Below are positions 32,099-34,457 of a stretch of 64,000 bases of DNA, one piece after another. The number at the start of each line of letters is the position of its first letter. The first letter of the stretch is position 1. The position numbers were made by a program, and so were the translations under genes. The notes below the pieces were generated by a model. The model was not told the DNA's origin. It saw nothing but the letters and a program-made list of their open reading frames with translations, and did not search any database. This DNA comes from a virus: the IMG/VR virus record IMGVR_UViG_3300037222_000066, one strand, 5' to 3'.

Positions 32099-33058
32099 GT
32101 GCCCTCTGATATCAAACTATTGTTTCTGGACTTTGAAACTTATTATGACAACGAATACTCGTTGCGTAAAATGCCGACACCCAATTACATTCTGGACCCT
32201 AGGTTCGAGTGTCAGATGGTCGCTGTCGAAGAATTTGGCGTAGGTGCCCAGATAATTGATGGGCCAGATTTCCCGCATTACTTGAAACAATTTGACCCCC
32301 GCAAAACAATCACGGTATCTTTCAACGCGCTTTTCGATGCGTCGATATTGGCGTGGCGCTATGGCTTTGTGCCAGTCCGCACTCTGGATACGATGGGCAT
32401 GGCGCGGGCGTTGATGGGCCACAAGCTGGTGCGGTTCTCATTGGGAGCCGTTGCGGAAGCCTTGGGGCTAGGCGCAAAGGGCAACGCGCTGGTCAAGGTG
32501 CTGGGTATGCACGCCCCCGAAATCAAATCGCGGGGCTTGTGGCGAGAGTTCAGCGCCTATGCGTTGCAGGACAACGTGCTGAACCGCGATATATTCCTGC
32601 GGCTGATCCCGCACTTTCCTGTATCCGAACGCCGGCTGATGGACTTGACGCTCCGATGCGCCATTGAGCCACGCTTCCGCATGGACATAGGGATGCTCAC
32701 GCAGCACCTGGCGGACGTTCGTGTGGCTAAGGCTGAACTACTTGCGGGGGCTGGTGTCGAACTGACCCAGTTAATGTCGGCCCAGAAATTTAAGGAAGCC
32801 CTGGAAGCGTTGGGCGTCGAGGTTGAAACCAAAGTAACGGTAGGCGCGCAAACTAAAGCAGACGCAACAGGTGAACCGCCTGTGCGGACGCCGGCGTTCG
32901 CTAAGACCGACGAGTTCATGGCGGGGCTACTGGACCATGAGAACCCTGCGGTGCAGGCGCTAGCCGCTGCAAGGCTGGGGTTCAAGTCTACCCTGGAGGA
33001 GGCCCGAACTGAGAAAATGCTCTCAATCGCGCGCCTGGACTGGAGTTTTTTAAAATGA
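32099..33058 (+). CDS. family A DNA polymerase, N-terminal fragment (3-5 exonuclease plus N-terminal polymerase region, 319 aa, GTG start)
   Basis: Exo I LFLDFETYYD and Exo II SFNALFDASIL motifs; the gene ends where an HNH gene begins. Confidence 0.7.
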   Translation: MPSDIKLLFLDFETYYDNEYSLRKMPTPNYILDPRFECQMVAVEEFGVGAQIIDGPDFPHYLKQFDPRKTITVSFNALFDASILAWRYGFVPVRTLDTMGMARALMGHKLVRFSLGAVAEALGLGAKGNALVKVLGMHAPEIKSRGLWREFSAYALQDNVLNRDIFLRLIPHFPVSERRLMDLTLRCAIEPRFRMDIGMLTQHLADVRVAKAELLAGAGVELTQLMSAQKFKEALEALGVEVETKVTVGAQTKADATGEPPVRTPAFAKTDEFMAGLLDHENPAVQALAAARLGFKSTLEEARTEKMLSIARLDWSFLK

Positions 33059-33501
33059 GGCCAAATAGGAACGTAGCCGGGATGAACCCAAAAACCAAGC
33101 GCCTGTACGCGGCTTGGGTTGGTATGCGGTGGCGATGTAACCCCAAATACCGGGATCACCACTGTTACTATGACCGCTGCATCCATCCTTGTAGTAGCTG
33201 GAATGACTTCGAGGTGTTCGCTAAAGATATGGGTCCACACCCAGGAAAGGGGTGGTGGTTGGACCGAAAAGATAACGATGGCAACTACACCAAGCTTAAC
33301 TGTCGGTGGGCTACGCCTAAAATGCAGCAGCGCAACCGTAGCAATAACAAACTCACAATGGACGACGTGGTTGAAATTAGGCGCCGGTATATTCGTGGAA
33401 CCGGGCGCGTACATCGTGGTAACTCAAAAGCCCTAGCCAAAGAGTTTGGCGTTCATTGGAGCATGATTTCTTACGTCGTTCGTGGGGAGCATTGGGCATG
33501 A
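33055..33501 (+). CDS. HNH homing endonuclease (HNH_3/AP2-like type) inserted in the DNA polymerase gene (148 aa)
   Basis: WLDRKDNDGNYTKLNCRWATPKMQQRN motif; paralog of 37572-38072; overlaps both polymerase fragments. Confidence 0.7.
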   Translation: MRPNRNVAGMNPKTKRLYAAWVGMRWRCNPKYRDHHCYYDRCIHPCSSWNDFEVFAKDMGPHPGKGWWLDRKDNDGNYTKLNCRWATPKMQQRNRSNNKLTMDDVVEIRRRYIRGTGRVHRGNSKALAKEFGVHWSMISYVVRGEHWA

Positions 33502-34457
33502 TGGGAGCCAACATGCCAGTTCCACTGCGCTACGGCGGTGCCCATACGCACCGCCTAAGCGGGGAGTGGGGGATCAATCTCCAAAACCTGCCGACCGTGC
33601 GCGGCAGCAAAGGTAAGAGCAAACTACGGCAGGGGCTTTGTGCCCCGGAAGGCTACAGCGTTATCGCAGCTGACCTGGGCCAGATTGAAGCTAGGCTGGT
33701 GGCATGGATATGCGGTGCCCTGCCACTATTGCAGCAATTTCGGGCCAGGCTCGATCCTTATGCAATCATGGGAAGTCTGATCTTTGGATACCCGGTAGAC
33801 CCCAAGGTGCATCTGCTGGAGCGGTTCATTGGAAAAACCGCGATCTTGGGGCTAGGCTACGGCTGCGGGGCAACCAAGTTTTACAACATGGTTATCATGT
33901 TGGCACGGACGCTGGGCATAGACCTAGGGACCATGTGGACTATGGAGCTGGCGCAGCAGTCGGTGGACACATACCGCACGGTGAACGCTCCTATCCAGTA
34001 CAGCTGGCGTAAGCTGGACCAGGCTATCAGGACTGCCTGGCTGGGCAAAGGTGGTCCGGTCCAGTTCTTGCCATGCACAATCGAGTATGGCGAGGTGAAG
34101 CTGCCGAGTGGCTTGTCCCTCAAGTATGACCGACCGGCGTTTGATTTCGAGACCGGTGAGCACACGTTCTACTACGGTAAGTTCAAGCACAAGATATATG
34201 GTGCTAAGCTGTTGGAAAACATAGTGCAAGCGCTTGCCCGTATTGTGGTGATGAACGCCGCCTTGCGGATAGCCGACCGGGGCTACAAGTTCGCGCTGCA
34301 AGCCCATGATGAACTGGTGTTTGTGGTGCCAAATTCAGAGGTTGACATAGCCAAGAAAATCATCCATGAAGAAATGGTGAGACCCCCCTCATGGGCACCC
34401 GATCTACCCCTAACCGCCTCCATCGGTGTTGGTGTCAACTACGGAGAAGCCAAATGA
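33456..34457 (+). CDS. family A DNA polymerase, C-terminal fragment (palm/fingers, 333 aa; alternative start 33498)
   Basis: Motif A AADLGQIEARLVAW (DYSQIELR-like), motif B RFIGKTAILGLGYG (RxxxKxxxFGxxYG) and motif C QAHDELVF (HDE). Confidence 0.75.
   Translation: MEHDFLRRSWGALGMMGANMPVPLRYGGAHTHRLSGEWGINLQNLPTVRGSKGKSKLRQGLCAPEGYSVIAADLGQIEARLVAWICGALPLLQQFRARLDPYAIMGSLIFGYPVDPKVHLLERFIGKTAILGLGYGCGATKFYNMVIMLARTLGIDLGTMWTMELAQQSVDTYRTVNAPIQYSWRKLDQAIRTAWLGKGGPVQFLPCTIEYGEVKLPSGLSLKYDRPAFDFETGEHTFYYGKFKHKIYGAKLLENIVQALARIVVMNAALRIADRGYKFALQAHDELVFVVPNSEVDIAKKIIHEEMVRPPSWAPDLPLTASIGVGVNYGEAK

Follow-up and report, generated by a model that had tools for sequence, protein, structure and literature searches.

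Fission of genes by free-standing homing endonuclease genes (HEGs) is known for a few genes of T4-like phages. The nrdA gene of phage Aeh1 is split by mobE and the topoisomerase genes 39 and 60 of T4 are associated with mobA, arrangements described as 'genes in pieces', and the split NrdA of Aeh1 is active as two chains (PMC2988022). Gene 43 of Aeromonas phage 25 is split with a seg-like HEG, and its halves co-purify and are active; gene 43 of Aeromonas phage 44RR is split without an HEG (PMC2988022). Among family A DNA polymerases (PolAs), genes of the SPO1 and Pf-WMP3 types carry self-splicing group I introns (PMC3428280). In S-SBP1-like T7-like cyanophages, which constitute cyanophage clade B in PMC12695635, a 1-nt deletion has split the enzyme at the exonuclease/polymerase boundary with no endonuclease gene involved, and its 2023 description presents it as the first split to be observed among PolAs (Czernecki et al. 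2023, PMC10201439). Here, we describe a computational analysis of a PolA locus in a 64,000-nucleotide stretch of the virus record IMGVR_UViG_3300037222_000066 (hereafter the window; the genome is ~65 kb), in which two polymerase half-genes flank a gene for an HNH-like endonuclease. We judge it probable, at roughly 0.8, that the polymerase domain of a KPP25-like PolA has been interrupted by a free-standing, homing-endonuclease-like cassette, leaving three translationally coupled cistrons.

The locus comprises three plus-strand open reading frames (ORFs) arranged head to tail, which in the ORF listing of the window occupy 32099-33058, 33055-33501 and 33456-34457 and encode 319, 148 and 333 amino acids, the last counted from a TTG at 33456. 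Read directly from the DNA, both junctions are 4-nt ATGA overlaps: the ATG of the HNH-like gene (33055) overlaps the TGA of the polymerase N-half (33056-58), and the ATG of the C-half (33498) overlaps the TGA of the HNH-like gene (33499-501). A preliminary description of this DNA had placed the third ORF at 33456-34457; its end and its motifs stand, but its start is most likely ATG 33498 rather than TTG 33456, because the former lies in an ATGA overlap behind a Shine-Dalgarno-like site and because public gene calls agree, the third gene being called from ATG 33498 (319 aa) on public metagenome contigs with the same DNA. No convincing plus-strand terminator was found between the three cistrons. 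The features of the locus, with polymerase motifs taken from the translations of the two halves and Shine-Dalgarno-like sites read from the sequence, are as follows.

31973..32000, + strand: candidate sigma-70-like promoter, TTGACA-16-TATATT, an 11/12 consensus match 5' of the N-half; its function is putative.
32099..33058, + strand: PolA N-half, 319 aa, with the 3'-5' exonuclease domain, thumb and motif 1; C-terminal end ...LDWSFLK-stop.
32129-40, + strand: Exo I, DFET (N-half).
32324-38, + strand: Exo II, NALFD (N-half).
32558-72, + strand: Exo III, YALQD (N-half).
32984-33007, + strand: motif 1, KSTLEEAR (N-half).
33042..33045, + strand: Shine-Dalgarno-like GGAG, 9 nt 5' of the HNH-like ATG.
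33055..33501, + strand: putative HNH-like (His-Me-finger-like) endonuclease gene, 148 aa, free-standing, with an ATGA overlap at each end.
33484..33489, + strand: Shine-Dalgarno-like GGGGAG, 8 nt 5' of the C-half ATG.
33498..34457, + strand: PolA C-half, 319 aa, with motifs 2, A, B and C; N-terminal start MMGANMPVPLRYGG.
33546-63, + strand: motif 2, THRLSG (C-half).
33672-95, + strand: motif A, DLGQIEAR (C-half).
33822-63, + strand: motif B, RFIGKTAILGLGYG (C-half), with Leu at position B3.
34305-13, + strand: motif C, HDE (C-half).

Translation confirms the earlier placement of Exo I and Exo II in 32099-33058 and of motifs A, B and C in the third ORF, and adds Exo III and motifs 1 and 2. The hallmarks of family A are all present: DxxxxE in motif A, RxxxKxxxxxxYG in motif B, HDE in motif C and TxR in motif 2. 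The catalytic motifs of the C-half (2, A, B and C) are invariant across the family alignments, as are the exonuclease residues D11, E13, N76, D80, Y154 and D158 in alignment A3. Pfam PF00476 is matched by the C-half only (E 3.9e-24), the N-half being without a PF00476 match; a single PHROG DNA polymerase profile, phrog_17, is matched by the two halves at the adjoining positions 670-944 and 965-1233 (N-half E 3e-21). Among PDB structures the Klenow fragment is matched at E 4e-15 by the C-half alone and at E 3e-30 by a family profile spanning both halves. The outer ORFs are thus the two parts of one family A polymerase from which nothing is missing, since the halves are colinear with continuous homologues. 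Loss of essential segments had been named at the outset as a finding that would point to a pseudogene, and the alignments reveal none.

The nearest relatives with annotation come from Rhizobium phages, among them RHph_TM3_14A, with whose uninterrupted 636-aa 'DNA polymerase I' both halves align end to end; in that gene the N-half and C-half matches lie back to back, 39 nt apart, and its neighborhood is syntenic with the window (metallopeptidase, polymerase, RecB-like nuclease, SNF2 helicase). When the halves were joined and used as the query, 7893 relatives were returned, and the best 120 of these are single chains, mostly of 618-688 aa and at most ~65% identical. Megablast of 31500-35500 against 50,697 phage records gave no nucleotide match, relatives there being found at the protein level only. 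The enzyme appears to belong to the KPP25-like PolA subfamily. This assignment is based on similarity (KPP25 is among the best annotated hits, with 35% identity over the C-half and ~28% over the N-half), on length (638 aa for the combined halves vs 600-650 typical of the subfamily), on the full set of exonuclease and polymerase motifs and on Leu at B3, and not on the clustering of PMC10201439 itself.

A loop of variable length joins motif 1 to motif 2, and the break falls within it, ~17 codons 5' of motif 2. The N-half ends 4 residues past a conserved Trp (...LDWSFLK) and the C-half starts 5 residues ahead of a conserved MPVPLRYGGAHTHRLSG block, the new termini adding only SFLK (4) and MMGAN (5). 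In a junction alignment of 34 sequences, the loop from the Trp to MPxPL ranges from ~6 to ~45 residues in continuous enzymes; the 4+5 residues of the window are at the short end of this normal range, and one continuous enzyme (P0001) has 9. Alignment with Klenow, proposed in the preliminary description as the way to locate the split, places motif 2 at T666-G-R668 and the break at a six-residue insertion between N649 and P650 (~649-653), that is, after the motif 1 helix and before the beta hairpin bearing motif 2. Klenow numbering is here the chain index plus 323, the fragment starting at residue 324, which agrees with the well-known R668. In a confident AlphaFold2 (AF2) model of the joined halves (mean predicted local distance difference test score, pLDDT, 90.5; predicted template modeling score, pTM, 0.86), the break between residues 319 and 320 is in a coil segment that follows helix 299-311 and precedes the motif-2 hairpin. 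The loop holding the break would be a surface loop, with the new termini exposed to solvent.

The arrangement is not confined to a single assembly. The identical 148-aa protein is indexed in 38 blocks of a public collection, and the 319/148/319 organization is present at all places shown, with 22 contigs of up to 66.6 kb read from ENA, JGI, Logan and NCBI sources. Six of these loci (L005-L010) are 99.97-100% nucleotide-identical to the window over the region. The original proposal of a polymerase gene in two cistrons around a free-standing gene is thus borne out by three ORFs, by ATGA overlaps and by unchanged recurrence in at least 22 contigs from many independent metagenomes. A sister lineage (L012-L014, and L019 from IMG/VR), with an N-half 98.1% and a C-half 95.9% protein-identical to those of the window, has an insert at exactly the same site that encodes 142 aa and is only 47.5% identical to the HNH-like protein of the window. 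Nucleotide differences between the two lineages, counted per 60 nt, are 12, 2, 6, 1, 0, 0, 0, 0, 0, 0, 0, 0, 2, 0, 0 and 18 along the N-half and 13, 3, 23, 2, 1, 0, 0, 0, 0, 0, 4, 5, 8, 6, 4 and 1 along the C-half. The differences cluster within 60 nt upstream and ~190 nt downstream of the insert, and internally the halves are identical, as would be expected had the cassette and flanking DNA been copied in from a more distantly related donor (co-conversion tracts). At this one site, then, a very different allele has taken the place of the cassette.

Comparison with the L013 lineage gave dN/dS values of 0.083 for the N-half and 0.166 for the C-half; both polymerase halves are under purifying selection. 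Furthermore, the new C-terminal tail of the N-half, DWSFLK-stop, shows only synonymous differences from the sister lineage despite the diverged flanks. Low dN/dS and a conserved tail together argue that both halves, the new terminus included, are being kept. The middle gene behaves as a mobile cassette, because its allele has been swapped along with diverged flanks, a paralogue varies in presence and absence, homologues occur at other sites, and its G+C content at third codon positions (GC3) is lower (0.57, and 0.44 in the second copy, against 0.65-0.67 in the polymerase halves). As in free-standing HEGs, its start and stop are its own and lie outside any intron or intein, and its alleles are polymorphic with mosaic flanks.

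The inserted gene had been described as an HNH_3/AP2-type endonuclease. Its HNH-like character stands, since it matches PHROG families labelled 'HNH endonuclease' (phrog_3377, E 2e-26); the finer assignment does not, there being no Pfam HNH_3 match, no AP2 domain (PF00847), and Arg in place of the catalytic His. The protein has a nuclease-like domain at approximately residues 12-95, with a predicted beta-beta-alpha unit at 68-94, and a helix-turn-helix domain at approximately residues 100-145. No Pfam match to the nuclease part was obtained at E<=10 with the window allele, the sister allele or the paralogue, no NCBIfam nuclease matched the HNH-like proteins, and Foldseek against the PDB returned nothing significant for the insert protein. 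A search with a four-sequence profile scored 7999 of 8000 candidates at E<=0.001, and a precomputed HNH domain is recorded for none of the best 120 homologues. Members share the signature YGGRGIxVCxRW...F..F..DMG..P....[LI]DRxDNxGxYxPxNCRWATxxxQxxN, followed by the helix-turn-helix. The position of the general-base His of HNH enzymes is occupied by Arg71 in 45/45 aligned members, and Asn82, Gln91 and Asn94 (44/45) occupy the positions of other HNH motif residues. The family is therefore large, with at least 8000 database relatives, and lacks a model in current domain libraries. The insert protein is best described as HNH-like (His-Me-finger-like), with a weak fold assignment and a putative nuclease activity.

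A second member of this family is present in the window.

37572..38072, + strand: second HNH-like family copy, 166 aa, phrog_3377 E 1.7e-39, with 30% identity to the first copy and located just 5' of the SNF2 helicase module.

Sister lineage L013 lacks the entire segment 37580-38321, which makes the second copy a presence/absence polymorphism; a 42%-identical relative occupies the second-copy position in another phage. A further homologue, 55% identical to the window's gene, adjoins the primase-helicase genes of locus L099. The primase-helicase of the window is one 992-aa ORF (DUF927; 41359-44337). At 7001-10234 of L099 it consists of two overlapping ORFs, a Prim-Pol of 353 aa and a DUF927 protein of 581 aa, and the pair is immediately preceded by the HNH-like gene. 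The L099 primase-helicase may be another fission linked to this family.

These observations suggest how the split gene could operate. One transcript, possibly from the promoter-like site at 31973-32000, would carry all three cistrons; ribosomes ending at the UGA at 33056-58 would reinitiate at AUG 33055, and those ending at the UGA at 33499-501 would reinitiate at AUG 33498. The two ~36-kDa polymerase chains would then associate non-covalently and rebuild a Klenow-like fold, with the new termini turned to the solvent. The HNH-like protein, when active, would nick or cut cassette-free alleles of co-infecting related phages near the motif-2 coding DNA, and recombinational repair would copy the cassette and its flanks. 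The preliminary description had the enzyme assembling from two polypeptides, and the colinear halves under purifying selection favor this as far as sequence analysis reaches; we infer that the enzyme functions as two reassembling polypeptides.

Several points weigh against this interpretation. The AF2 model is of an artificial fusion of the halves and not of two chains, and association of the two chains and polymerization by them are deduced from sequence, modeling and analogy. The window allele of the HNH-like protein deviates from its family at four nearly invariant positions (G39Y, G40D, G42C and R48S): residues 39-49 (33169-33201) read YYDRCIHPCSSW, where 41-43 of 45 family members have YGGRGIxVCxRW and the sister allele is consensus-like. 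The window protein may accordingly be inactive or decaying, and decay of this copy is what the usual life cycle of such genes predicts. Selection on the HNH-like gene is not measurable, as all copies from the window's lineage are identical. Finally, invasion of the loop may have followed an earlier split.

This last alternative, in which a small indel made an ATGA overlap and the HNH-like gene subsequently invaded the junction, would entail the same present-day mechanism, and it is the strongest of the competing explanations. It gains from splits that lack an insert. Among the 150 best C-half cluster representatives, a few ~320-aa proteins begin at the same point as the C-half, and two could be checked in context. 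In L017 the N-half ends ...ELDWSKVK-stop and the C-half starts MTAHLLPVPLRYHG, with an ATGA overlap and no gene between; this locus is reproduced in a second assembly, L223, with 1 mismatch in 4208 nt (99.98% identical). In L018 the N-half ends ...ELEWPEWVGQR-stop and the C-half starts MNRTIMPVPLRYGG, again with an ATGA overlap and no insert. Removal of 33055-33497 from the window would yield exactly this insert-free split state. Additionally, the S-SBP1-like cyanophage split shows that a 1-nt deletion can divide a PolA without any HEG (PMC10201439), and the same ambiguity of order was noted for gene 43 of Aeromonas phages 25 and 44RR (PMC2988022).

The insert-free splits are, however, not the closest relatives of the window, being only 55-57% identical to it vs 66-69% for continuous enzymes. 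The L018 change is no simple indel: against the 85%-identical continuous L224, it is a 20-nt insertion at the junction bearing a Shine-Dalgarno-like AGGA and the ATGA. (A sequencing error in L018, suggested by the continuity of P0404, which is at least 90% identical, was rejected on the same ground, a 20-nt insertion not being a 1-nt error.) Moreover, repeated hits at one loop come about more easily through a site-specific element, by gain and by loss between ATGA repeats, than through random indels. The nearest neighbors of the split lineages are all continuous (P0006 at 69% for the window, P0052 at 79% for L018, and P0099 and P0108 at 63% for L017), and the split therefore arose or was transferred several times at one loop. 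It is nevertheless rare. Across 80 IMG/VR loci, 77 are continuous over the junction, 2 are uninformative and 1, from the sister lineage, is split. Among 119 metagenome and genome loci, 92 are clearly continuous, 7 are interrupted by the end of a contig, and a split at this loop was seen in none of the remaining 20 (other insertions, truncated matches and distant relatives); ~170 other relatives are thus continuous. Three short C-half-like proteins (P0161, P0183 and P0225) were dropped as candidate splits, lying at contig ends or having an open upstream frame. On balance we consider fission before invasion unlikely, although it deserves more weight than any of the remaining alternatives.

Several selfish elements have entered this part of the gene in relatives. 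In L124 and L126 an in-frame intein interrupts motif 2 at HR[LF]|[SC] (GAHTHRF|C...IVHN|SGEW), 15 codons downstream of the break. The L124 intein spans 1365-2201, with a nested ORF at 1474-2145, and L126 has the equivalent region. In both, an ORF from the Arg-type HNH-like family to which the window's gene belongs (blastp E ~1e-18) overprints the intein linker in a different reading frame, and both frames are open in L124 and L126 although the loci are only 83% nucleotide-identical; the arrangement resembles an intein within which a free-standing endonuclease gene has been lodged out of frame. The gene calls P0174 and P0239 start inside the intein, at RL|SG. L119 has a LAGLIDADG-type intein at GMN|...|QNLP, L130 has a different kind of gene split, directly after ...NPQNLPK-stop, with an insert of ~750 nt, and an IS110-like transposase disrupts a related polymerase gene in L122 and L159. 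Selfish insertions thus fall within ~35 codons of motif 2 in this PolA family, making the surroundings of motif 2 a hot spot for such elements. It is likely that the HNH-like family recognizes the conserved motif-2 coding DNA, because the same family rides in the intein at motif 2 of L124 and L126, and the window cassette probably sits at the nearest place where the protein tolerates a break. More tentatively, and at slightly less than even odds, we propose that this enzyme is the first obligate-heterodimer PolA cut in its polymerase domain, that such cuts have been made repeatedly by an undescribed Arg-type nuclease family targeting the motif-2 region, and that the host gene is spared either by the loop split or by nesting of the ORF in an intein.

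A separate observation concerns the polymerase of Ruegeria phage Tedan (L002, MT764845; 2879-5341), a single 820-aa ORF annotated as hypothetical, in which the C-half match is in two pieces over 1332 nt; it contains a ~140-aa in-frame insertion, possibly a mini-intein.

The three remaining alternatives fare much worse. Genes interrupted by selfish elements are often inactivated, as the IS110-like disruption in L122 and L159 illustrates, and the locus could in principle be a defective phage's polymerase pseudogene, or the product of a sequencing or assembly error. We regard this as very improbable. Both halves are intact with all catalytic motifs, their dN/dS is 0.08-0.17 and the new termini are conserved; the identical locus recurs in the independent source collections and long contigs described above (at least 22, of up to 66.6 kb), and the sister lineage retains the three-gene layout around another insert.

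Removal of the insert and restoration of a single chain, by a group I or group II intron, an intein, or split inteins of a 'fractured gene', has precedents in the HNH-encoding group I introns of polymerase genes in SPO1-like and some T7-like phages (PMC3428280), in free-standing HEGs between split-intein halves (PMC2677866), and in the inteins that relatives of this very polymerase bear 15-25 codons downstream of the break. We nevertheless give this explanation almost no credence. A permissive Rfam scan of 30000-37000 (E<=1) detected no intron family and only two tRNA-like hits. An ORF takes up all of the 439 nt that separate the halves, and folding of the insert RNA is no more stable than that of shuffled controls (z -0.33). 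The insert, whose product runs from MRPN... to ...HWA, occupies another reading frame bounded by a stop on either side and lacks Cys/Ser...HN intein blocks, in contrast to the true intein blocks seen in L124, L126 and L119; the 4 and 5 extra residues at the new termini leave no room for split-intein halves. The earlier statement that intron and intein signatures are lacking thus withstands the Rfam scan, the folding comparison, the reading of frames and the search for Hint blocks.

A programmed -1 frameshift, raised in the preliminary description for the region around 33040-33510, would fuse the N-half to the HNH-like protein to give a product with its own function, and a perfect X_XXY_YYZ heptamer, T_TTT_TTA (33046-33052), does occur in the zero frame, separated by two codons from the end of the N-half, with the HNH frame at -1, but the idea is scarcely credible and the heptamer is judged incidental, for it reads TTC TTG in the sister lineage (synonymous changes) with the same architecture kept, no stimulatory structure was found downstream of it, reaching the C-half would need a second shift where there is no slippery site, and L017 and L018 have no comparable slippery site.

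Other features of the window were recorded alongside the polymerase locus. Downstream of the polymerase, 34671-35399 encodes an HD-type phosphohydrolase-like protein with a weak 5'-deoxynucleotidase hit (E 0.009), and 35396-35833 a MazZ-like protein with the dATP/dGTP diphosphohydrolase N-terminal domain PF18909 (E 1.8e-14). The genes at 34671-35833 recall the nucleotide-pool enzymes known from 2-aminoadenine (Z-genome) phages; a check for PurZ, which was not exhaustive, detected none in the window ORFs tested. Upstream, two tandem tRNA-like elements lie at 30364-30437 and 30520-30593 (Rfam tRNA, 33.1 and 39.5 bits), of which ARAGORN reports only one, with an abnormal anticodon loop; a repeated peptide in the ORF at 30356-30655 is the apparent translation of these elements. 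At the far end, 62493-63980 encodes a collagen-repeat protein (PF01391, E 1e-17), probably a tail fiber, and G+C jumps to 0.68 at 63001-64000, coinciding with this protein.

Neither a PolA interrupted within its polymerase domain nor one split in association with a free-standing endonuclease gene is described in the searched open-access literature, and the break point appears to be new for PolA. Xp10, Xop411 and OP1 were dropped as split-polymerase precedents, the published account having dispersed HNH genes and no split polymerase. A PolA that tolerates a break between thumb and palm would provide a natural split point for engineering two-piece polymerases, and a split PolA would test the assembly of the Klenow fold from fragments. 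The locus would also be a tractable system in which to follow how a selfish gene is gained, exchanged and lost within an essential one, since the continuous state, the split with either of two alleles, the split without insert and the intein-borne state all exist in nature.

How does the locus compare with described systems? Its likeness to split polymerases of T7-like and SPO1-like phages, suggested initially, is loose, since the SPO1-type genes are interrupted by group I introns and the T7-like cyanophage genes are cut between exonuclease and polymerase. As in the window, an HNH-type gene interrupts PolA in the SPO1 (I-HmuI-type) and Pf-WMP3 (I-PfoP3I) introns and is expected to spread by cleaving insert-free alleles (PMC3428280); those introns, however, restore one mRNA and one protein, whereas the window's insert has no detected ribozyme or room for one. 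The S-SBP1-like enzymes share with the window a family A polymerase encoded as two adjacent genes, a new stop and start conserved in the lineage, and termini predicted to be solvent exposed. The window differs from them in being cut inside the polymerase domain, with thumb and motif 1 on one chain and motif 2 onward on the other, in carrying a mobile gene, and in belonging by our assignment to the KPP25-like subfamily. Fractured genes have the same order of half, free-standing endonuclease gene and half (Dassa et al. 2009, PMC2677866), but their products are ligated through split-intein halves, whereas the window termini add 4 and 5 residues without intein blocks.

Better analogues are Aeh1 nrdA/mobE and gene 43 of Aeromonas phages 25 and 44RR. 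In the Aeh1 and T4 cases, as here, a free-standing HNH-type gene is found in an essential gene of replication or nucleotide metabolism, and start/stop overlaps suggest coupling. Reassembly from two chains is demonstrated for Aeh1 NrdA and predicted for the window, which differs in its family A polymerase, its phage group and its Arg-type nuclease, which is not a Mob-type HNH protein. The Aeromonas gene 43 pair likewise places a replicative polymerase in two cistrons, split with or without an endonuclease gene and with the same ambiguity of order; its polymerase is of family B, its endonuclease of the GIY-YIG seg type and its spacer untranslated, in contrast to the family A enzyme, HNH-like gene and 4-nt ATGA overlaps of the window. 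Finally, the described members of the KPP25-like subfamily itself (cluster 12, PMC10201439) are single polypeptides, whereas the polymerase of the window is split.

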